The notes beneath the pieces are model-generated. The model saw only the letters and a list, made by a program, of their open reading frames with translations. It was not told the DNA's origin and ran no database searches. Positions 4,169 through 57,894 of a stretch of DNA of 64,000 nt are shown here, one piece after another. The position numbers and the translations under genes are program-made. The DNA is taken from contig DSAF01000158.1 in the NCBI GenBank assembly GCA_011388305.1, positions 2,212 to 66,211 of the forward strand, in the 5' to 3' direction. The number at the start of each line of letters is the position of its first letter. Within the stretch, counting starts at the first letter, position 1. This DNA is from Candidatus Zixiibacteriota bacterium. Its GTDB lineage: Bacteria > UBP14 > UBA6098.

Positions 4169-4304
4169 GCGCGGGGGCGTCGGCGCGCGTAAACGCGCCG
4201 CGAAGTAGTCGGAGCGCGATCCTGCACAACAAAGAAAGTCTTCCGCCCGACTACTTCGAGCCTGCCTGCGATTTGTAAATCGCAGGCAGGGCCGACGCCC
4301 CGCC
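4169..4304 (+). repeat. copy 1 of a ~135-nt GC-rich structured intergenic repeat (outer stem plus three hairpins)
   Basis: GGGGGCGTCGGC...GCCGACGCCCC outer inverted repeat enclosing three hairpins: GCGCG-TAAA-CGCGC, a 12-bp stem CGAAGTAGTCGG/CCGACTACTTCG with a 34-nt loop, and the palindrome CCTGCCTGCGATTT-GT-AAATCGCAGGCAGG. The same architecture recurs at 26711-26844 and 56386-56522. Confidence 0.8.
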
Positions 4305-4431
4305 ACGAAAAGCGTTAAAGACATCGAGTTCGCGCGAGCATAAGCACTGCTTGATTTGTCGCTATATATGGTTATATTTCGCGCTTAAAGGAGTTCAGAT
4401 ATTCAGAACGCGTTCTGAAGGACGGAGTAAT

Positions 4432-10199: not shown

Positions 10200-11146
10200 T
10201 GTTGCCCCCCGAATTTTTCTTTGAAGTGCAAGACTGTCTCGCGGAATCCCTCGTCCCAGCTGGTTTGGGGTCGCCATCCCAGCTCGCGGATTTTTGTCGA
10301 ATCTACCGCATATCGGAAATCGTGGCCGGGGCGGTCGGCGACATGCTCGATTCGGCTCTCGGGGATATCGAGAATCTCGAGCATCTTGCGTGCGACATCG
10401 ATGTTCTTACGATGGCAGTCTGCACCGATGTTGTAAATTTCGCCCACCTCGCCGCGGTCGAGCACGAGCTTTATCGCCCTGCAGTTATCTCGAACGAAAA
10501 GCCAGTCGCGCACTTGGTCGCCCTCGCCATAGATTGGCAAAGTCTCGCCCGCCATGGCGCGCTTGACGAAGAACGGGATGAGCTTCTCGGGGAATTGGTT
10601 CGGTCCGTAATTGTTCGTCGGGCGAACAATCACTGTCGGGACGCCCCAGCTTACGCGGTATGCGTTGCAAAGCGCATCGCCGGCGACTTTGCTGGCAGAA
10701 TACGGCGACGACGGATTAAGCGGGGACTCCTCAGTCGCACTGCCCTCGACGAACGCACCATATACCTCGTCGGTGCTGATGTGAACGAATTTCTCGATGG
10801 AAGCCTCGCGAGACTTCTCCATCAGCGCGTGCACGCCCATGATGTTCGAGCGAATGAAGGGGCTTGCCTCGGCGAGCGAGCGGTCAACATGTGTCTCAGC
10901 GGCGAAATTGACCACGTGGCGAGCGTCCTCGAGAGCACGGGCAACATCGTCCGGTTCGGCAATATCGCCTTTGAAGAAGCGGACGCGTTCGTTATCGAGC
11001 GCGCCGTCGAGGTTGTCGAGACTACCGGCATAGGTCAGCTTATCGATAATGAGGATTTCGTCGTAATCGCAGTCCTCAAGTAGCAGTTTGACGAAATTCG
11101 ACCCTATGAAGCCGGCACCGCCGGTTATTACTATCTTGTTTCCCAA
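10196..11146 (-). CDS. rfbB: dTDP-glucose 4,6-dehydratase
   Basis: MGNKIVITGGAGFIGSNFV Rossmann motif and the extended SDR catalytic YxxxK. The strong match to RmlB covers all 316 aa. Confidence 0.9.
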   Translation of the reverse strand: MGNKIVITGGAGFIGSNFVKLLLEDCDYDEILIIDKLTYAGSLDNLDGALDNERVRFFKGDIAEPDDVARALEDARHVVNFAAETHVDRSLAEASPFIRSNIMGVHALMEKSREASIEKFVHISTDEVYGAFVEGSATEESPLNPSSPYSASKVAGDALCNAYRVSWGVPTVIVRPTNNYGPNQFPEKLIPFFVKRAMAGETLPIYGEGDQVRDWLFVRDNCRAIKLVLDRGEVGEIYNIGADCHRKNIDVARKMLEILDIPESRIEHVADRPGHDFRYAVDSTKIRELGWRPQTSWDEGFRETVLHFKEKFGGQQ

Positions 11147-11848: not shown

Positions 11849-11974
11849 TTCTATCTCCTCTATTGATTTATGATTTGTGATTGATGATTATAGATTGGAA
11901 GGCGAGCGACTTTGGGTCGAACCCCGCCTTTTACAATCTTCAATCTCCAATCATCAATCTGAAATCCAAGTGCT
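11849..11974 (-). promoter_or_regulatory. conserved 5' leader element, copy A (shared with the secD upstream region)
   Basis: Minus-strand sense reads TTGGATT-CAGATTG-GATTGGAGATTG ... AAAAGGCG-loop-CGCC ... AAATCATAAATCAA-SD-ATG. This is about 70% identical over ~125 nt to 14897-15017. Confidence 0.6.
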
Positions 11975-14896: not shown

Positions 14897-15017
14897 ATAC
14901 TCCTCCTTGATTTATGATTTAGGATAGGTGATTTATTTGGGATTCGGGCGATTTCCTTACGCAGTAGCGCCTTTTCCAACATAAATCTCCAATCCGCAAT
15001 CTGCAATCCAATTTTTA
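14897..15017 (-). promoter_or_regulatory. conserved 5' leader element, copy B (upstream of secD)
   Basis: Homologous to 11849-11974: TTGGATTGCAGATTGCGGATTGGAGATTT...AAAAGGCG-loop-CGCC...AAATCATAAATCAAGGAGGAG-ATG. Confidence 0.6.
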
Positions 15018-26597: not shown

Positions 26598-26710
26598 AGT
26601 CACTCCATGACAATCTGAGTTTACAAATTTATAGATTATATTTGAATAGCATCGCAAAGTCAAACCAAAATGCAATTTGGAGTTTGTTTCGATATTTTTG
26701 TGATTTCCGA

Positions 26711-26844
26711 GCAGGGGGCGTCGGCCCTTCCTGCGATTTGTAAAATCGCAGGAAGGTGCGAAGTAGTCGGTGGGCAGTTATTTGCCACAATAAGCAATCG
26801 CGCCCCGACTACTTCGTAGCGCGTTTACGCGCGCCGACGCCCCG
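26711..26844 (-). repeat. copy 2 of the structured intergenic repeat, inverted orientation
   Basis: Module order on the plus strand is outer-D-C-B-outer: TTCCTGCGATTT-GTA-AAATCGCAGGAA, then GCGAAGTAGTCGG...CCGACTACTTCG, then GCGCG-TTTA-CGCGC, bounded by GGGGGCGTCGGC / GCCGACGCCCC. Confidence 0.8.
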
Positions 26845-26919
26845 TGAGGAGCGAAAAAACAGCTTGACTTTCATGAAGGGGATGCGTATTTTTATTAAAA
26901 GTTAGGAAGAATTAACTCA

Positions 26920-29965: not shown

Positions 29966-30052
29966 GAACTTCCAAACACGAGCCTTAACTCTGTAATTTC
30001 GAGTTTCTGTCATTTCGAGCGAAGCGAGAAATCTCGCAAGCTGGAAGGAGAA

Positions 30053-50649: not shown

Positions 50650-51078
50650 CTACATTTGGCGAACGGTTATTTTTCGCTCGCTATCGCTGATTCTATCAAT
50701 CGACACGCGGATAACCCTTTGCGGAAGTAGCTCCTCCCCCCTATCTGCCCATTCTACCAGCGAAATGCCCTCGCCCTCGAAAATCTCCCAAAGCCCGAGT
50801 TGCGCAATATCCTCGTGCTTCTCGACTCGATATAAATCTATGTGATAAATTATCTTATCCGCAATATATTCATGTATTATCGCAAATGACGGACTTGAAA
50901 CCTCTGTCTCGTTGAATCCTAACGCCCTCGCGATGCCCTTAATCATCGTAGTCTTGCCTGCGCCCAAATCGCCGGTAAACGCCACGACATCGCCCTCGCG
51001 GAGATATCCGGCGAACTCTCCGCCAAAACCTGAGGTCTGCTCGGCGGAGCGGCTTATGAAATCGAGCCTCAGCCTCAT
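50650..51078 (-). CDS. tsaE: tRNA threonylcarbamoyladenosine biosynthesis ATPase TsaE
   Basis: Walker A GDLGAGKTT and YjeE-family similarity over 142 aa. There is a 4-nt overlap with porX. Confidence 0.85.
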   Translation of the reverse strand: MRLRLDFISRSAEQTSGFGGEFAGYLREGDVVAFTGDLGAGKTTMIKGIARALGFNETEVSSPSFAIIHEYIADKIIYHIDLYRVEKHEDIAQLGLWEIFEGEGISLVEWADRGEELLPQRVIRVSIDRISDSERKITVRQM

Positions 51079-52634
51079 TTCGGCCTCAGAACCGCCACGG
51101 GAACCACCATCTCCTCGATGCTAATTCCGCCGTGGAGGAAGCTGTTTCGATATTGCCGCTCGAACTGCGAGAAATTCGTCGGATAGACGAAGTAATAATC
51201 CTCTTTGGCGATGATGAAGTTCGTAGTCCGCGTGAAGCTCGGAAGGCGCCAGTCTTTTGGGTTTCGGATGAAGATGCCGCCCTTTTCATCGCAGTTGATG
51301 TTGTCGCCGAATTTATATCGAAGGTTCGGCGATGTGTCTCTCTTGCCGAATGCCTTCGTGCCGCGTCTTCCAATGGTGCTCCCGTGGTCTGTCGTAATTA
51401 CAACGGTGACATTCTCGCGCGCAATCGCCCTAAGAGCTTTGAGCAGGCTCGAATGCGCGAACCAAGTCTTCATTACGCTACGGTATGCGCCCTCGTCAGG
51501 GGACATCTCGCGAAGCACCTCGTTGGCGGCTCTACTGTGGGCGAGGATGTCCAGAAAGTTCGCTACCACGCTGGTCATCGGCGCGGAGAGGTAGCTCTTC
51601 AGCCGGTGGACGAGGCTCTCGCCCTCCTCGGGGTCGAGAATTTTGATGTATTTGGTATCGCCGGGGAGGTCTATGCCGTTTTGGGCTATGAGCTTATCCA
51701 GAAGCTGGTGCTCATAGCGGTTGCGAGAGCTGGAGTCATCCAGCGGATTTATCCACAGGTCGGGGTATCGTTGGGAAATTTCATAGGGGAAAAGCCCGCT
51801 GAACACAGCATTGCGCGCGTAAGGCGTCGCCGAGGGCAGAAGGCTGAAGAACACGTCCGTCTCGATGTTGTAATAGTCGCTGAGGAGAGATTCGACAGTG
51901 AGCCACTGGTCGAGGCGCATGCAGTCGATGACGACAAAGAACACCTTCTCGCCCGCGCCGAGTGCCGGAATCACGTGTTCCCCCGCAACATCGACGGAGA
52001 GCATCGGTCTGTTTTCGCGCTCGCTCCAAATCCATTGTTCCCAATTGCTTTCGATGTAGCGCGAGAACTCGCCGTTGCACTCTCTGCGGAAATCGCGGTG
52101 TGTCCGCGTGAGGCCGAGTTCCGAATGACTGTCGAGGATGACGTCCCATTCGGCCAGCCAGAACGACAGCTCGAGCCACTGCTCGGGAGATGCTTTCTGC
52201 GAGGGCCGCATGACCATATCGCGGTATTCCGTCGTGTAATCACGCGTGAGTTGTTGGCCTACGATGCGTCCCGAGTCGAAAATTCTCTTCAGCGTGGAGA
52301 GTATCTGATGCGGATTGACGGGCTTGACGAGGTAATCTGCGATTTCTTTGCCGATTGCGTCCTCCATCAGCGTCTCCTCCATCGATTTGGTAATCATGAC
52401 GACGGGGATGCGCTTGTCTATTTTGCGGATTTCCTCGAGCGTGGTAAGCCCGTCCATTCCGGGCATCATTTCGTCGAGGAGGACGAGGTCGAATCCGCCG
52501 CTCTGCACCAGCGCGACGGCATCCTCGCCGGAGTGGACGCCCTCGACGGAGTATCCCCTTTCCTGAAGGAAGATTATGTGCGGCTGAAGTTGGGCGATTT
52601 CGTCATCTGCCCAAATAATTCGTTTTTCTGTCAT
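51075..52634 (-). CDS. porX: PorX-like response regulator (CheY receiver plus PglZ/alkaline-phosphatase-like domain), T9SS regulator
   Basis: Receiver domain with a phospho-acceptor Asp (DLVLLDEMMPGMDG) followed by a ~390-aa PglZ domain. At 519 aa it matches PorX architecture. T9SS cargo genes and a histidine kinase are adjacent. Confidence 0.8.
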   Translation of the reverse strand: MTEKRIIWADDEIAQLQPHIIFLQERGYSVEGVHSGEDAVALVQSGGFDLVLLDEMMPGMDGLTTLEEIRKIDKRIPVVMITKSMEETLMEDAIGKEIADYLVKPVNPHQILSTLKRIFDSGRIVGQQLTRDYTTEYRDMVMRPSQKASPEQWLELSFWLAEWDVILDSHSELGLTRTHRDFRRECNGEFSRYIESNWEQWIWSERENRPMLSVDVAGEHVIPALGAGEKVFFVVIDCMRLDQWLTVESLLSDYYNIETDVFFSLLPSATPYARNAVFSGLFPYEISQRYPDLWINPLDDSSSRNRYEHQLLDKLIAQNGIDLPGDTKYIKILDPEEGESLVHRLKSYLSAPMTSVVANFLDILAHSRAANEVLREMSPDEGAYRSVMKTWFAHSSLLKALRAIARENVTVVITTDHGSTIGRRGTKAFGKRDTSPNLRYKFGDNINCDEKGGIFIRNPKDWRLPSFTRTTNFIIAKEDYYFVYPTNFSQFERQYRNSFLHGGISIEEMVVPVAVLRPK

Positions 52635-52700
52635 ATTTTCTCCGGAAAAATAAAAATCTTAACTGTCATCACTGGCGAGCCACCGTCTCGCCCCTACGGG

Positions 52701-52785
52701 TTGTCATTGCGAGACCTGAAAGGTCGAAGCAATCTTGAATGAATTGAGGAGATTGCTTCGTCGCTGTTCTCCTCGCAATGACAAA
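52701..52785 (-). ncRNA. Y-shaped nested hairpin in the porY-porX intergenic region (candidate attenuator/processing site/small RNA)
   Basis: Outer stem TTGTCATTGCGAG/CTCGCAATGACAA (13 bp) encloses GACC-tgaaa-GGTC and GAAGCAATCT-(14 nt)-AGATTGCTTC. Confidence 0.4.
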
Positions 52786-52816
52786 CACTACCTATCACCC
52801 ATAACCCAATACCCTA

Positions 52817-54079
52817 TCACACTTTCGCGCTCTTTGGGAAAGTAATCACAAAGGTCGTCTTTTCGAACGGTTTGCTCTCCAGAAGCGTGAGCCGGCCGAA
52901 ATGATATTCCTCGACGATTCTTTTAGCAAGGGAAAGGCCAAGCCCCCATCCGCGCTTCTTGGTTGTGTATCCGGGGGAGAAAATTTTACGGTAGTTTCGG
53001 GCAGAAATTCCCTTGCCGTTGTCCGTAACGATTATCTGGACATCCTCGCCATCGACGTCCATTCGTGTGGCGACCTTGATTTTTGCGCCATCTTGAGGCG
53101 CGGCCTCCATCGAGTTTCTGATTAGGTTCTCGATTGCCCACGAGAGGAGCATCTGGTTGGCCATCACCGGCGGGACGGGATAATATTGCTCGACTATCTC
53201 CATCCGGCCTCGAAGGCGCGGCATACGCTGGCGGAGATACGCCACAGACTGGTGGATAAGCGATGGCAGTTCTGTAGGCTCCAGCTCGGGCGTCGAGCCG
53301 ATTTGCCCGAAGCGCATGACAATCTTGTTGAGGATTAGTATATCCTCTGAGATTCTGTCGATGATGTCTTGCGGCGAGCGGTTGGAATGCCGGAACGCGC
53401 CGGCGATTTCGGCCTCTTTGATTTCGTCTTTGAGAAGCTCGTTCCATCCCATCATGCTCGAAATGGGCGTGCCGAGCTGATGCGCTGTCTCGCGCGCCAT
53501 TCCCAGCCAGATGTTCTGTTCTTCGTAGAATTTTAGGCGGTTGTATGAGAGATACGAGAACACCAGTAGCAGTGCGACGAGCGTCAGAATGCCTATCGGG
53601 ATGACTCTGAACCATTTAGCAAACGGCGGCTCGCCGAAATAAATATATCCGAGCAACCTGTCTGTTCTGCCGACATAGATTGGCACCGGCGATTGCGCCT
53701 GCCGCATCTTGGCGACCTCCGCGCGGAGCCGCTCGCGGGCTTCCTCGGTTGTATCGTTTCGGGCGATGCCCACATTGCGCCACGACATAGGCTGACCTTC
53801 GACTGATGTGAGTATCATCGGGAAATCGCTTTTGTCTATAATCTCCTCGAAAAAAATTGAAATCTCCGCCGCGCCGGCCGTTCTCAAAGCCGCGAGCGAC
53901 CAAAGTCGCGCATACGCGCTGACGACTCTTCGGTTGTGCTGGGATGTCCTCTCGCGGCTGTAGTTGACTATGTAAAATATGCTCACTACAATGAGAAACC
54001 CCGCAACGACTGCCGTAAGAGAATAGAAGAACGGCACTCCCATATAGGTGATGCGGTATTTTGACCTCGAATTTTTCAA
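52817..54079 (-). CDS. porY: sensor histidine kinase (PorY-like; partner of PorX)
   Basis: Two TM segments, a HisKA H-box (HQLGTPISSMMGW) and a HATPase_c domain (motifs DNGKGI, GLGLSLA). It lies immediately upstream of porX. Confidence 0.75.
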   Translation of the reverse strand: MKNSRSKYRITYMGVPFFYSLTAVVAGFLIVVSIFYIVNYSRERTSQHNRRVVSAYARLWSLAALRTAGAAEISIFFEEIIDKSDFPMILTSVEGQPMSWRNVGIARNDTTEEARERLRAEVAKMRQAQSPVPIYVGRTDRLLGYIYFGEPPFAKWFRVIPIGILTLVALLLVFSYLSYNRLKFYEEQNIWLGMARETAHQLGTPISSMMGWNELLKDEIKEAEIAGAFRHSNRSPQDIIDRISEDILILNKIVMRFGQIGSTPELEPTELPSLIHQSVAYLRQRMPRLRGRMEIVEQYYPVPPVMANQMLLSWAIENLIRNSMEAAPQDGAKIKVATRMDVDGEDVQIIVTDNGKGISARNYRKIFSPGYTTKKRGWGLGLSLAKRIVEEYHFGRLTLLESKPFEKTTFVITFPKSAKV

Positions 54080-54082
54080 CGG

Positions 54083-55363
54083 CTATAACCTCGGGGAAAT
54101 CTCCTCTTGCCCGTGCATATACGGCCTCAACGCGCGGGGAATTTGCACCGTCCCTCGGGCGGTTTGATACGATTCCCATATCGCGACTAAGAGCCTCGGG
54201 AGTGCCACGCCGCTTGCGTTTAGCGTGTGGACGAACTGCACCTGTCCGCCGCTTTCCGGGCGGAAGCGAATGTTCGCTCTCCGCGACTGGAAATCGAGGA
54301 AGTTGCTACAGCTGGATACCTCGAGCCACCTGCCTTCGCCGGGCGCCCAAAGCTCGATGTCATAGACCTTTGCCGACGCGAATGACATGTCGCCCGTCGC
54401 CAGAAGGACGACGCGGTAGTGAAGTTCGAGCGCCTGAAGGACTTTCTCGGCCTGCGCGAGAAGCGACTCGTGTTCCTCCCACGATTTATCGGGATGCGAG
54501 AACTTGACAAGCTCGACCTTGTCGAACTGGTGAACGCGGAGAAGCCCGCGTGTATCTGCACCGTATGAGCCGGCCTCCCTTCGGAAATTGGCCGTGTATC
54601 CCGCGTAGTATATCGGGAGGTTCTCCTCGCGGAGCATTTCGCCGGCGTGGAGATTGGTGATTGGCACCTCGGCGGTGGGGATGAGGAAGAGGTCTTCCTC
54701 GGGGAAGTGATACATGTCGCCTTCGAGCTTAGGGATTTGCGCGGTGCCGGTCATCGCTTGCCTGTTCGCGAGGAACGGGGGCGCGATTTCGAGAAAGCCC
54801 GATTCGCGGTGAATATCCAGCATCATCGCGATAAGGGCGCGGGACATGCGGGCGCCATCGCCGGCGAGGAGCGAGAAGCCGCTACCGGCGACTTTCGCGC
54901 CAAGTTCCATATCGAGCATGCCGAGCATGTCGCCGAGATCGATATGGTCGCGCGGCTCGAAATCGAACTTCGGCGGACTTCCCCACTCGCGGAGAATCAC
55001 ATTTGCCGAAGCATCGCCCACGGGGACGTCATCCGCGGGGATGTTCGGGACTTTGATAAGCAATGCCGACCATCGTGTCTCGGCTTCGCGCTGTTTTTCC
55101 TCGAGGGCTTTCACGCTGTCGGAGAGGGCTTTGGCCTCGGCCTTGAGTTTTTCGGCCAGCTCGCGGTCTCCGCCGGCGAACGCCGCGCCGACTTGCGAGG
55201 ACAATTCTTTTTGCCGATGGCGAAGCTCGTCGCCCTCGGCCTGAAGCGCGCGCCGCTCGGCATCGGCAGTGAGGATTTCGTCAACCACATCTGGCTCGTT
55301 TTTGTTGGCGCAGGCTGATTTTACTAACTCGGGATTTTCTCGAATGATGTTAATGTCTATCAT
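54083..55363 (-). CDS. serS: seryl-tRNA synthetase
   Basis: N-terminal coiled-coil arm and the class II catalytic core. The SerS match covers all 426 aa. Confidence 0.9.
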   Translation of the reverse strand: MIDINIIRENPELVKSACANKNEPDVVDEILTADAERRALQAEGDELRHRQKELSSQVGAAFAGGDRELAEKLKAEAKALSDSVKALEEKQREAETRWSALLIKVPNIPADDVPVGDASANVILREWGSPPKFDFEPRDHIDLGDMLGMLDMELGAKVAGSGFSLLAGDGARMSRALIAMMLDIHRESGFLEIAPPFLANRQAMTGTAQIPKLEGDMYHFPEEDLFLIPTAEVPITNLHAGEMLREENLPIYYAGYTANFRREAGSYGADTRGLLRVHQFDKVELVKFSHPDKSWEEHESLLAQAEKVLQALELHYRVVLLATGDMSFASAKVYDIELWAPGEGRWLEVSSCSNFLDFQSRRANIRFRPESGGQVQFVHTLNASGVALPRLLVAIWESYQTARGTVQIPRALRPYMHGQEEISPRL

Positions 55364-55364
55364 A

Positions 55365-55474
55365 GTTGGGTTTTGGGTTATGGGTTTTGGGTTTTGGGTT
55401 TTGGGTTATGGGTGATTGGGAAAAGGCTAAGGGTTAAAGGTTAAGGGTTAAGGGTAAATGGGTCATGGGTTTGG
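55365..55474 (+). repeat. telomere-like G-rich minisatellite: (GGGTTTT/GGGTTAT)x7 followed by (GGGTTAA)-type units; 14 G3 tracts in 110 nt
   Basis: Direct reading gives GGGTTTTGGGTTATGGGTTTTGGGTTTTGGGTTTTGGGTTATGGGTGATTGGG...AAGGGTTAAAGGGTTAAGGGTTAAGGGTAAATGGGTCATGGG. It fills the whole interval between the stop of the 55475-56305 gene and the serS ATG. Confidence 0.85.
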
Positions 55475-56305
55475 TCATTTTTTTACAGTGAAACGAAATG
55501 CGCAGAACGGCGCGGTCGTGTTTTCCACGCGAAATTCGACGATGTTCTCGCCTTTGGGGAGTTCGATGTCAAAGCGCCGCGCCCTCGCAGGAATAACGCT
55601 CGGCTCGTTCTCGAAAATAGCTGTCTCGGAGATAGACGCGCGGAGCCTCGTGCGCGTCTCCGTTCCGTCCGCCCTCCTAACAACGACGGTGTAATTCTGC
55701 GCGCCCTTCATCGTCTTGTCGAAAGCGAGCCTCGTCCATACGGTTAGCATCCCCGCGCCATTATATTTGATGGTGACCGCCTTCTTGCCTTTGCCGGTGT
55801 AGTAAGTCGAACGGGTGTCCCCAACTACAAGCGCAAGCGCCTTGTCATATCGTTCGGGCGTAATGCGCGATGGGCTTCGCGGGATAGCGATTAGCCGCGC
55901 AAAAAGCTCGCCGTCGGTGGTCATCTTCAGCTCGCGCTTGCCGCGCTCCAGCTTGATTTTCAGTATTTTCGCCTGAGTGACCGGCACGGGCTTGGCCTTG
56001 CCAACCTCCATGCGGTATTTCTTCGATGGCCTCTCCGAGAAAGTGAAGCGCTTGAACTCCGCGCCATCGATGTGGAGAACAAAATCTGCGGACTTGCCCG
56101 CCTCGGCGCGAACATATAGGTGCACATATCCCGGGCCTTCGGCCGTCCACTCAATTGGGGTTTTGGCTGTAAGTTGTGAATATGAGTATCGTCCGTCGCC
56201 GCCGATAAGCCTGCACTGTGTGCCGGCCCTCTTCGGCTGAATCAACTGCGCAGTCGCCGTGAAGGCGAGCGCAAATATCGCACCGACGATGATTGTCTTC
56301 CGCAT
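55475..56305 (-). CDS. hypothetical secreted protein
   Basis: 276 aa with a signal peptide (MRKTIIVGAIFALAFTATAQ). Lys/Arg-rich; no family assigned. Confidence 0.55.
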   Translation of the reverse strand: MRKTIIVGAIFALAFTATAQLIQPKRAGTQCRLIGGDGRYSYSQLTAKTPIEWTAEGPGYVHLYVRAEAGKSADFVLHIDGAEFKRFTFSERPSKKYRMEVGKAKPVPVTQAKILKIKLERGKRELKMTTDGELFARLIAIPRSPSRITPERYDKALALVVGDTRSTYYTGKGKKAVTIKYNGAGMLTVWTRLAFDKTMKGAQNYTVVVRRADGTETRTRLRASISETAIFENEPSVIPARARRFDIELPKGENIVEFRVENTTAPFCAFRFTVKK

Positions 56306-56385
56306 CTTTCCTCCGAAAAAATGACATCACTATATGATAGGCCGAAGTCCTGCCTATGTCAAACAGCTAATTTCGCTTTCAGCCC

Positions 56386-56522
56386 GCAGGGGGGCGTCGG
56401 CGGCCGTGAACGGCCAGCGAAGTAGTCGGGGCAGAATCGTCGCTTTGTGCAAAAAATCTCCCCCGACTACTTCGCTCTCACCTGCGATTTGTTAAATCGC
56501 AGGTGAGGCCGACGCCCCCCCC
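56386..56522 (+). repeat. copy 3 of the structured intergenic repeat
   Basis: GGGGGGCGTCGGC / GGCCG-TGAA-CGGCC / GCGAAGTAGTCGGGG...CCCCGACTACTTCGC / CTCACCTGCGATTT-GTT-AAATCGCAGGTGAG / GCCGACGCCCCCC. Stems are kept by compensatory substitutions relative to copy 1. Confidence 0.8.
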
Positions 56523-56544
56523 GTTTGCACGCGCGAAAATCGAA

Positions 56545-57894
56545 TTAAATCTCGCCGTATTCTTCAAGCTTGCGGTAGAGCGTTCTCAGGCCTATGCCGA
56601 GAATTTCGGCGGCGCGCTTCTTATCGCCATCGCACTCTTCGAGCGTCTCGAGAATGGCAGTGCGCTCCAAATCGCGAATCGGAATGCCCCCGAGCTTGCC
56701 GCTATCGAACGAGCGCTCGACTCGAATCGTCTCGGGGACATTCGACAGCACCGGCTCCGGGCTGAAAATCGCCATCTGCTCGAGCGCGTGCTTTAACTCG
56801 CGGATGTTTCCCGGCCATTTATATTCCATGAAGACCTCCATCGCCTCCTCGGAGAGGGCCTCGAGCTTGCGGTTGAGTTGCACCGAGAGGCGGTTGAGAA
56901 AGAACTCCACGAGGCGCGGAATGTCCTCTTTGCGCTCGCGAAGCGGCGGTAGGTCTATTGTGACAACGCGCAACCGATACAGCAAATCCTGACGGAATTC
57001 GCCTTTGCGGACGGCTTCGTCGAGGTCGCGGTTAGTCGATGAGACGACGCGCAAATCGAGCTGTTTCGAGCCTCTTCCGCCGAGGCGCTCGACCGTGGAG
57101 TTCTCGAGCACACGAAGAAGTTTCGGCTGAAGCCTCAACGGGACATCGCCAATCTCATCGAGGACGATAGTTCCGCCGGATGACTGCTCGAATTTGCCCG
57201 GCCTGCTGTCGGTGGCACCTGTGAAAGCGCCCTTTTCATGGCCGAAAAGCTCGCTCTCCATGAGTGTCTCCGGTATCGCCGAGCAGTTAACCTTGACCAG
57301 CGGGCCTTCCGCACGCGATGACACCTTGTGAATCGCGTCGGCGACCAGCTCTTTGCCGGTGCCGCTTTCGCCGGTGATGAGCACCGTTGTGTCAATCGGC
57401 GCGACGGCCTTGACTTGCTCGAAAACTTTGACGATGGCCGGAGATTCCCCCACGATGCCCATCCACGCGCCCTCACCACGAAGCGCCGACTCGAGTTCCT
57501 TCTGCCGACGAATCATGTGCGACACCTCGAGAGCCTTGTCGGCCAACGCGCGGAGACGGCGTATATCGACGGGCTTCGTGAGATAGTCGTATGCGCCCTT
57601 CTTCATCGCCTCGATTGCCGTATCGACGGAGCCGTGGCCGGTGACGAGGATTACCTCCGCCGGCGACTCGGCGGTTCGCGCCATTTCGAGAAGGTCGATG
57701 CCGCCGATAGTCCCCGGAAGCATGAGGTCGGCAATGAGGAGGTCGATGTCGAGCTTCTCGAAGAGCTTTTTGGCCTGTTCGCCGGTCTGGGCGGTATGTA
57801 TAATTCGGTCTTCGGTTTCGAGAACTTCGCTCAAAGTCTCGAGCTGAGCCGGTTCGTCGTCAACTACGAGCAGGTGATTCTTATTGTCTTGCAT
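56545..57894 (-). CDS. sigma-54-dependent response regulator (NtrC family: receiver, AAA+ and Fis-type HTH)
   Basis: Receiver Asp (DLLIADLMLPG), Walker A GESGTGKE, the GAFTGA motif and a C-terminal HTH. Confidence 0.9.
   Translation of the reverse strand: MQDNKNHLLVVDDEPAQLETLSEVLETEDRIIHTAQTGEQAKKLFEKLDIDLLIADLMLPGTIGGIDLLEMARTAESPAEVILVTGHGSVDTAIEAMKKGAYDYLTKPVDIRRLRALADKALEVSHMIRRQKELESALRGEGAWMGIVGESPAIVKVFEQVKAVAPIDTTVLITGESGTGKELVADAIHKVSSRAEGPLVKVNCSAIPETLMESELFGHEKGAFTGATDSRPGKFEQSSGGTIVLDEIGDVPLRLQPKLLRVLENSTVERLGGRGSKQLDLRVVSSTNRDLDEAVRKGEFRQDLLYRLRVVTIDLPPLRERKEDIPRLVEFFLNRLSVQLNRKLEALSEEAMEVFMEYKWPGNIRELKHALEQMAIFSPEPVLSNVPETIRVERSFDSGKLGGIPIRDLERTAILETLEECDGDKKRAAEILGIGLRTLYRKLEEYGEI

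Follow-up and report, generated by a model that had tools for sequence, protein, structure and literature searches.

Tandem repeats of G-rich heptamers have been described in Xanthomonas, where the unit is GGGAATC, and in Nostoc, where it is GGGGA(C/T)T (Rehm et al., 2015; PMC4692102). These arrays are abundant and intergenic, and they prefer spacers that separate aligned ORFs (open reading frames). Their orientation follows a rule: the G-rich strand is either the non-coding strand at most 50 bp upstream of an ORF or the coding strand at most 50 bp after a stop codon (PMC4692102). The arrays are transcribed and adopt quadruplexes in vitro, and they differ from one close relative to another; no link to surface genes was seen and no function has been identified (PMC4692102). 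Heptamers in general are given as the most abundant long simple repeat in prokaryotes, and polymerase slippage has been proposed for them (Mrazek, 2007, as cited in PMC4679880 and PMC4692102). Another described system are the TAACTGA heptamer arrays of marine Beggiatoaceae, whose last unit lies a few nucleotides ahead of the start codon, in the place of a Shine-Dalgarno sequence (MacGregor, 2015; PMC4679880). We analysed here a 111-nt tract of G-rich heptamers that lies directly in front of serS, the gene for seryl-tRNA ligase, in a 64-kb stretch of DNA from an uncultured bacterium (contig DSAF01000158.1 of assembly GCA_011388305.1; the whole stretch is called the window, and positions refer to it). 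We show that the heptamer tract is a genuine repeat, and we assign it to the known G-rich heptameric repeats, as a new heptamer with its own unit in a new host lineage. The reading that we prefer, with a probability of about 0.6, is that of a slippage-grown, co-transcribed G3N4 repeat that is tolerated since the start of serS stays open and independent of a Shine-Dalgarno sequence.

As an earlier, sequence-only reading of the window had stated, the tract is the entire region upstream of the serS start: it fills the whole spacer between the TGA stop codon of a 276-aa ORF (55475-55477, minus strand) and the serS ATG (55363). On the plus strand, which is the G-rich one, it reads AGTT GGGTTTT GGGTTAT GGGTTTT GGGTTTT GGGTTTT GGGTTAT GGGTGAT T GGGAAAA GGCTAA GGGTTAA AGGTTAA GGGTTAA GGGTAAAT GGGTCAT GGGTTTGG. 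The unit types are GGGTTTT, GGGTTAT, GGGTGAT, GGGTTAA and GGGTCAT. The seven-base units number 15 in all: 13 carry a run of at least three G, one fewer than the 14 G3 tracts counted before, and two are degenerate (GGC and AGG). Tandem Repeats Finder reports a period of 7 for 55366-55413 (6.9 copies, 92% matches, consensus TTGGGTT, score 82), and a looser, degenerate GGGTTAA array continues to 55471 (13.7 copies at 78%). The majority of the units are imperfect, and the longest perfect stretch amounts to 3.7 units. Across the 64 kb no other stretch of 111 nt holds more than seven G3 runs, and a lag-7 autocorrelation scan at high stringency finds the tract as the sole locus in the window, where scans for periods 5, 6, 8 and 9 found nothing. 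With at most one mismatch allowed, GGGTTNNGGGTT has 15 matches where 2.3 are expected, and none of 100 shuffles reached 15. The GGGT core of the units is better kept than their end, with mismatches at 3 of 60 core positions against 17 of 45 at positions 5-7 (Fisher p=3e-5); a manual count of each half against its own consensus gives roughly 3/60 and 11/45. The tract has thus the tandem units of 5-11 nt, repeated above chance, that characterize long simple sequence repeats, here of the heptanucleotide class, and it lies outside all ORFs, the non-coding location expected for unit lengths that are not multiples of three.

The build of the tract is that of the Xanthomonas and Nostoc repeats, namely units of 7 nt with a run of three to four G and at least four consecutive units; its 13 G3 runs form six overlapping quadruplex motifs (statements on quadruplexes and on folding are predictions throughout). 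Both flanking genes are encoded on the minus strand, and this co-directional arrangement is also found around a short inverted copy of the repeat, the mini-array, which lies 2.6 kb away. The strand rule holds at both places. In the tract the G strand serves as template and comes to within 4 nt of the serS ATG; in the mini-array it is the coding strand, 2 nt after the stop codon of the histidine-kinase gene, where the minus strand reads TAGGGTATTGGGTTATGGGTGATAGG. Further likenesses are the inverted copies, the probably transcribed position, a length and presence that vary among close relatives and the missing tie to surface genes. The tract differs from Xanthomonas and Nostoc in its units, which are GGGTTTT, GGGTTAT and GGGTTAA and neither GGGAATC nor GGGGA(C/T)T, and in its host, an uncultured lineage labelled UBP14 or 'Zixibacteria'. 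There are two loci in 64 kb here compared to hundreds per genome there, the tract is long at 15 units where the mode in Rehm et al. (2015) is 4, and it has demonstrably replaced a ribosome-binding site before an essential gene. The view that such a tract is unusual in a bacterial chromosome is not supported, since heptamers are the commonest long simple repeat and G-rich arrays with matching strand and position are known (PMC4692102).

A resemblance to telomeres had also been noticed, and in composition it holds. Like the eukaryotic repeats TTTAGGG, TTAGGG and TTTTGGGG, the tract combines a tandem G3 run with a T/A-rich tail and has quadruplex potential. However, the resemblance is superficial: the tract is only 111 nt long, consists of mixed units and is internal to an operon whose genes on both sides are syntenic in six relatives, with neither the end of a chromosome or linear replicon nor a telomerase context. 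The short tandemly repeated repetitive (STRR) heptanucleotides of cyanobacteria (Calothrix, Nostoc) are tandem and intergenic, and several unit families occur per genome. The window is similar in the last respect, as it also holds a family of GATTnnn heptamers; units and phylum differ, and this comparison is by description only.

Arrays of this kind are found at other serS loci. Our scan of 556 kb of unrelated loci yielded 12 arrays of period 7, six of period 8 and between zero and two for each of the periods 5, 6, 9, 10 and 11, in agreement with the abundance given for heptamers. All lie between genes, and several directly adjoin serS. The arrays near serS, of period 7 and some of period 8, belong to unrelated uncultured lineages (Gracilibacteria, Peribacteria and others) and are located in L022 (3603-3668), L037 (2789-2823), L026 (1189-1229 and 2007-2042), L060 (4287-4326), L036 (2-38 and 1737-1772) and L089 (15052-15131). 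In L022 the inverted arms GAATTAA and TTAATTC stand 12 nt before serS, in L037 a CTCTTCA array free of G stands at a distance of 14 nt before it, and the TGATTTG units of L026 resemble the second (GATTnnn) heptamer family of the window. Where an array of these unrelated lineages lies at most 15 nt from a start codon, the messenger RNA (mRNA) is G-depleted in three of three cases.

How the tract came to its position can be read from relatives. We compared six of them, with SerS proteins 67-81% identical (L001, L079/L080, L081/L082, L083, L084 and L085/L086); the closest species representative by SerS is UBP14 bacterium UBA6098 (81%), and the SerS protein of the window is identical to a database entry labelled as metagenome-assembled genome of 'candidate division Zixibacteria'. 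All six have the same gene order, from an ORF of the 276-aa type through serS, the histidine kinase, a response regulator with PglZ domain and TsaE to an S8 peptidase. Their spacers before serS measure 4-21 nt and are purine-rich (AAGAGG, GAGAGG, AAGGGA), for example gttAAGAGGtaacactATG and tcGAGAGGttcgATG, and a period-7 scan of these six orthologous loci found no repeats. The comparison with orthologous serS loci that the sequence-only reading had proposed thus finds the tract in none of the six relatives. By this comparison it is an insertion or expansion specific to one lineage, and it sits within an operon junction, precisely in the space from the stop codon to the last bases ahead of the ATG. 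A composite transposon that carries serS and the kinase gene was considered and rejected, as the relatives keep the gene order without the repeats.

The relatives also bear on the transcript. The serS promoter had been expected within the tract. However, the relatives' genes stand 4-21 nt apart, and a consensus scan of both strands found no sigma-70-like site in the tract and no promoter-like hexamers in or around it. The best promoter-like site of the region is a TTGACA-17-TATCAT upstream of the 276-aa ORF, with TTGACA or TTGACT at the equivalent place in L001, L079 and L081. This lineage clearly uses TTGACA-type promoters, as the secD promoter TTGACA-17-TATAAT is likewise conserved in the window and in three relatives, with slight variation in the -10 hexamer. 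The tight ancestral junction, the lack of promoter hexamers in the tract and the conserved promoter further upstream therefore argue for an intercistronic spacer and for co-transcription of serS with the gene ahead of it, and the transcript that crosses the tract likely comes from this conserved promoter.

Repeats are prone to mis-assembly, and an artefact of assembly or a chimera was the first outcome by which the earlier claims would have fallen. The locus is 100% identical in L078 (JGI 3300022547), and in L077 (ENA ERZ27245514) it is 99.945% identical over 19.9 kb, with 11 single-nucleotide polymorphisms (SNPs), none of them in or near the tract, and no gaps; in both assemblies the 111 nt are byte-identical to the window. 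An artefact would have had to produce the same 111 nt in the same syntenic flanks in three assemblies from at least two data sets, and it can be regarded as effectively refuted. A metagenome scan with SerS found no close relative (best 58%) and added no population data, and scans of the sequence collection turned up no additional contigs of this organism. The constancy of the tract also speaks to the suggestion of a phase-variable tract or recombination hotspot, in which slippage would change the copy number, or the inverted copies would recombine, so that expression varies. As in phase-variable simple sequence repeats, tandem units stand close to a gene's 5' end, and a few of them are perfect; the idea of recombination gains the inverted copy at a distance of 2.6 kb. 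However, the three assemblies show no length polymorphism despite the 11 SNPs of one of them, and no inversion or other rearrangement was seen among them. In addition, the tract lies neither within an ORF nor between the -35 and -10 hexamers, its units are mostly imperfect, the gene is a housekeeping gene, and phase variation was judged unlikely for the analogous class (PMC4692102). We consider the chance of a contingency locus or recombination hotspot to be remote.

The properties of the leader RNA probably explain how the insertion could persist. Read from the minus strand, the tract is an RNA of 41 A, 47 C, 2 G and 21 U with the units CCCAAAA, CCCATAA and CCCTTAA. Its predicted minimum free energy is 0.0 against a window mean of -32.7 kcal/mol, the lowest degree of structure among the 111-mers there, and the start region of serS is the most accessible one among 41 genes, with a mean unpaired probability (-20 to +13) of 0.78 against a median of 0.50 and values of 0.42-0.62 in the six orthologs. 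The duplex with the anti-Shine-Dalgarno sequence, at +2.0 kcal/mol, is the worst of 44 window genes. The C-rich leader without Shine-Dalgarno sequence that the sequence-only reading had described is thereby confirmed. Lack of local structure is a known determinant for the translation of mRNAs that have no Shine-Dalgarno sequence or ribosome-binding site (PMC3121790). A similar situation exists in the Beggiatoaceae: direct heptamers overlap the expected ribosome-binding site, little Shine-Dalgarno character is left, and some arrays stand before essential genes, as the last unit of the tract ends 4 nt before the serS ATG with no Shine-Dalgarno sequence. The TAACTGA arrays differ in having no G/C runs and no quadruplex potential, in their 2-6 copies and in their number of about 170 per genome, and none of the mRNA units of the tract corresponds to TAACTGA.

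According to the reading that we prefer, the heptamer array would have grown by replication slippage in one species-level lineage only. The tract would have been inserted between the 276-aa gene and serS, ancestrally 4-21 nt apart and co-transcribed, and would now be transcribed as a 111-nt spacer from the promoter upstream of the 276-aa gene. In this position it would have displaced the ancestral purine-rich ribosome-binding site and abolished translational coupling to the upstream gene; serS would therefore be initiated without a Shine-Dalgarno sequence, uncoupled from its neighbour, on a fully open, C/A-rich and nearly G-free landing pad. The insertion was probably tolerated before an essential gene because the C/A-rich RNA leaves the start open. 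Within the same joint estimate of about 0.6 for this whole mechanism, the near-perfect left half of the tract would be young and the degenerate right half older. We infer a slippage origin, co-transcription, Shine-Dalgarno-independent initiation and near-neutrality of the tract.

A 10-codon mini-ORF lies within the C-rich leader (55434-55466, minus strand; MTHLPLTLNL followed by a stop codon, ATGACCCATTTACCCTTAACCCTTAACCTTTAA). It has no Shine-Dalgarno or other ribosome-binding site and no serine codons, and was rejected as a leader peptide; it is probably meaningless.

An open, C-rich and untranslated RNA may also serve termination. Published criteria for Rho utilisation (rut) sites are a C/G ratio above 1 over 78 nt and regularly spaced C (PMC6407284). 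The best 78-nt stretch of the leader contains 33 C and a single G (C/G = 33), far above the runners-up on both strands of the 64 kb (34/13 and 31/7), and has 17 regular-C matches at a minimum free energy of 0. If the 111-nt RNA acted as a rut site, Rho would load whenever ribosomes miss the serS start and would terminate inside serS, so that expression of serS and of the downstream kinase and regulator genes would depend on translation status, a form of intra-operon attenuation. In length (at least 78 nt), excess of C over G, regular C spacing, openness and lack of translation the leader indeed resembles such sites. However, tandem repeats are not the form of natural rut sites, whose C/G ratio is rarely above 3, and predictors of such sites are high in false positives (23,930 calls in Escherichia coli; PMC6407284). 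A pause consensus is absent from the 150 nt downstream of the putative site, and our Pfam survey found no rho among 43 window ORFs. Moreover, a strong constitutive terminator before the essential serS, with no promoter downstream, would be harmful, and two populations nevertheless have the tract fixed. Rho-dependent attenuation is therefore in our view unlikely. Rfam gave no match on the tract, either for the whole window at the gathering threshold or for 52600-56600 at E <= 1, and the scans of the window for Rfam families, transfer RNA (tRNA) and transfer-messenger RNA found a single tRNA (tRNA-Lys) far from the tract.

At the DNA level, serS is encoded on the minus strand and the G-rich strand of the tract is thus the template strand. 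The quadruplex potential attributed to this strand has been substantiated. G4Hunter gives a mean of 1.16 over the tract and 1.30 for its best 50-nt stretch, the maximum of the window. The 64 kb contain seven canonical (G3+N1-7)x4 motifs, and six of them, overlapping, belong to the tract. No competing Watson-Crick structure is predicted for the G strand itself (DNA minimum free energy 0). Similar oligonucleotides of the GGGAATC and GGGGAYT type form quadruplexes in vitro (PMC4692102), and both the thirteen G3 runs with their 4-nt loops and the preferential conservation of the GGGT core are consistent with a template strand that, once unwound, adopts at least one quadruplex and impedes or stops RNA polymerase on its way into serS. 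On the other hand, the G4Hunter score reaches the lenient threshold only, the polymerase and the RNA-DNA hybrid occupy the template strand during transcription, and the C-rich mRNA is unable to form a quadruplex. There is no sensor and no alternative state, the tract is absent from six relatives, and for the analogous class the authors did not identify a regulatory role (PMC4692102). Nothing was found that points to the transcriptional switch that had been suggested, and we keep a quadruplex roadblock as a quite improbable alternative.

The mini-array after the kinase gene deserves attention of its own. Positions 52791-52814 and 55396-55419 are complementary at 92% over 24 nt and form the longest inverted repeat of the region. 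They share an exact 16-mer, whereas in none of 200 first-order Markov versions of the window does a match to the tract exceed 14 nt in either orientation. At least two G3N4 loci thus exist, both seen within the 64 kb, with serS and the kinase gene as one unit between them. Compared with the orthologs, the spacers of both are insertions; the one between kinase and regulator genes is 182 nt here, where relatives range from an overlap to +25 nt. The duplex between tract and mini-array has a predicted energy of -39 kcal/mol. Such a duplex, of about 25 bp and formed between the C-rich leader and the G-rich mini-array of the same transcript, would close a 2.6-kb loop around serS and the kinase gene and might act as a processing stalk (RNase III type) or as end protection. 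A parallel exists in the window, where the second heptamer family brackets secD-secF with a C/A-rich arm before the start and a G/U-rich arm after the stop. However, the strand rule of the known class produces this pattern automatically (PMC4692102), and the secDF elements each own a local partner arm. The energy is also not unique: the partner of the tract ranks first, another segment is only 2.5 kcal/mol weaker (-36.5), and the ranking does not single out one long-range partner. Part of the trailer is predicted to be tied up in local structure, and the pairing is not conserved. We regard the bracketing duplex as highly improbable.

A more general form of the idea is that, in this lineage, transcribed spacers may contain heptamer arrays as polar elements which act as complementary pairs around two-gene units, with a C/A-rich array before the first start codon and a G/U-rich array after the last stop codon, an arrangement seen twice (serS-kinase and secD-secF); this, again, is speculative and has a distinctly small chance of being correct. 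If true, the two ends would pair (about 25 bp and -39 kcal/mol in the case of serS) and thereby excise, circularise or stabilise an mRNA of part of the operon, and the unpaired C-rich arm would be a ribosome landing pad and a Rho entry site, together a repeat-built device that sets expression inside operons. The conserved core with variable positions 5-7 could also be read as protein-binding array, in which GGGT (DNA) or ACCC (RNA) cores at 7-nt spacing are iterated sites for a cooperative binder, either a DNA heptad binder of the ribbon-helix-helix type or, on C-rich RNA, a protein of the KH, cold-shock or S1 type. For the TAACTGA arrays, candidate RNA binders have been put forward (PMC4679880). 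However, no candidate gene lies nearby, and the Pfam survey of the 43 window ORFs revealed no obvious repeat-binding protein, reverse transcriptase or recombinase; only two loci were seen, the array is missing from the relatives, and unit families differ within one genome. We give this possibility a very slight chance.

Several observations weigh against slippage and near-neutrality as the full account. Two G3N4 loci were seen in the about 65 kb of genome covered, whereas the Xanthomonas and Nostoc repeats are marked by many dispersed copies. Conservation is significantly higher in the GGGT core than at positions 5-7, and the sole two copies bracket one two-gene unit in complementary orientation; core conservation and bracketing hint at constraint or pairing beyond neutral slippage, and slippage alone leaves the origin of the inverted copy at 2.6 kb unexplained. 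Rho should also be drawn to an open, C-rich, untranslated stretch, which would be costly before an essential gene unless ribosomes outcompete it. Finally, co-transcription and Shine-Dalgarno-independent initiation are steps that we infer. In favour of the preferred reading, several kinds of small repeats appear to have been acquired in transcribed spacers of this genome (see below), and therefore a mutational or selfish origin is favoured over a dedicated regulator of serS. The locus is a natural before/after case, with six relatives that have a tight junction and a ribosome-binding site and one lineage that has a 111-nt repeat, and it bears on the tolerance of repeats, on an open leader as substitute for a Shine-Dalgarno sequence and on the action of Rho and quadruplexes. 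The G-rich heptamer class is also extended to an uncultured phylum-level lineage; if none of this holds, the tract is an ordinary, recently expanded microsatellite. The features of the locus are listed in Table 1.

Table 1. Features at the serS locus, in window positions.
Feature	Position	Strand	Basis
Whole heptamer tract	55364..55474	+	Sequence, Tandem Repeats Finder, motif count, G4 scan
Near-perfect core of the tract, GGGTTTT and GGGTTAT units	55366..55413	+	Tandem Repeats Finder score 82
Degenerate half of the tract, GGGT core kept, positions 5-7 variable	55414..55474	+	Sequence, mismatch count
Inverted mini-array GGGTATTGGGTTATGGGTGATAGG, G-rich on coding strand, 24 nt	52791..52814	-	92% complementary to 55396-55419
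serS, seryl-tRNA ligase, 426 aa, start MIDINIIRENPE conserved in orthologs	54083..55363	-	ORF and ortholog comparison
276-aa signal-peptide protein, no Pfam family, directly upstream of serS in all relatives	55475..56305	-	ORF and synteny
Histidine-kinase gene, directly 3' of serS, 3-nt spacer	52817..54079	-	ORF and Pfam
Enlarged kinase/regulator spacer with mini-array and two hairpins	52635..52816	-	Comparison with relatives
Sigma-70-like promoter TTGACA-17-TATCAT, 11/12 matches, upstream of the 276-aa ORF	56334..56362	-	Consensus scan

Other repeats are present in the window. The second heptamer family has two copies, at 11855-11972 and 14905-15016, each with (GATTnnn)5 and inverted (nnnAATC)5 arms around a GC-rich hairpin. 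The copies are 79% identical over about 125 nt and end in AAATCATAAATCAA directly before a Shine-Dalgarno sequence. They flank secD-secF, one in the 5' untranslated region of secD and the other between secF and a 177-aa ORF, and they are absent from three relatives that retain the secD promoter. The first copy is predicted to form a hairpin of about 100 nt (-41.7 kcal/mol, z = -4.0). Between the strands there is no asymmetry in the two hairpins that would separate selection on RNA from selection on DNA (element A -41.3 vs -39.4, element B -27.7 vs -30.5).

A repeat family of about 146 nt has three intergenic copies, at about 4180-4310, about 26700-26860 and 56385-56530. Within an outer stem (GGGGCGTCGGC / GCCGACGCCCC) lie a long hairpin (CGAAGTAGTCGG / CCGACTACTTCG) and several small ones (CCTGCGATTT..AAATCGCAGG and GCGCGTTTACGCGC, or GGCCGTTCACGGCC), and the small hairpins swap positions between copies. 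One copy lies between the gene of a sigma-54 activator and the 276-aa ORF, where the spacer of the relatives is 22-208 nt long. Rfam gave no match for this family beyond a sub-threshold microRNA match, and the copy at 56385-56530 has a predicted fold of -109 kcal/mol (z = -14.4). The spacer between kinase and regulator genes contains, at 52700-52785, a long hairpin with outer arms TTGTCATTGCGAG / CTCGCAATGACAA and inner arms CGAAGCAATCT / AGATTGCTTCG, and a related motif, TGTCATTTCGAGCGAAGCGAGAAATCTCGCAAG, is found at about 30005-30040. Presumably this hairpin resembles a widespread intergenic repeat that yields spurious 'RFARND'-type ORFs.

Two gene calls in the window could be clarified. The response regulator with PglZ domain (519 aa, 51075-52634, minus strand) is conserved in all relatives and is a real gene, and it is overlapped by a 536-aa ORF on the plus strand (51132-52742), which is a shadow ORF and should not be annotated. 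A gap of 1 kb in the ORF map holds, at 10278-11140 on the minus strand, an NAD-dependent epimerase/dehydratase with a Pfam match over 287 aa, and is coding sequence rather than spacer.

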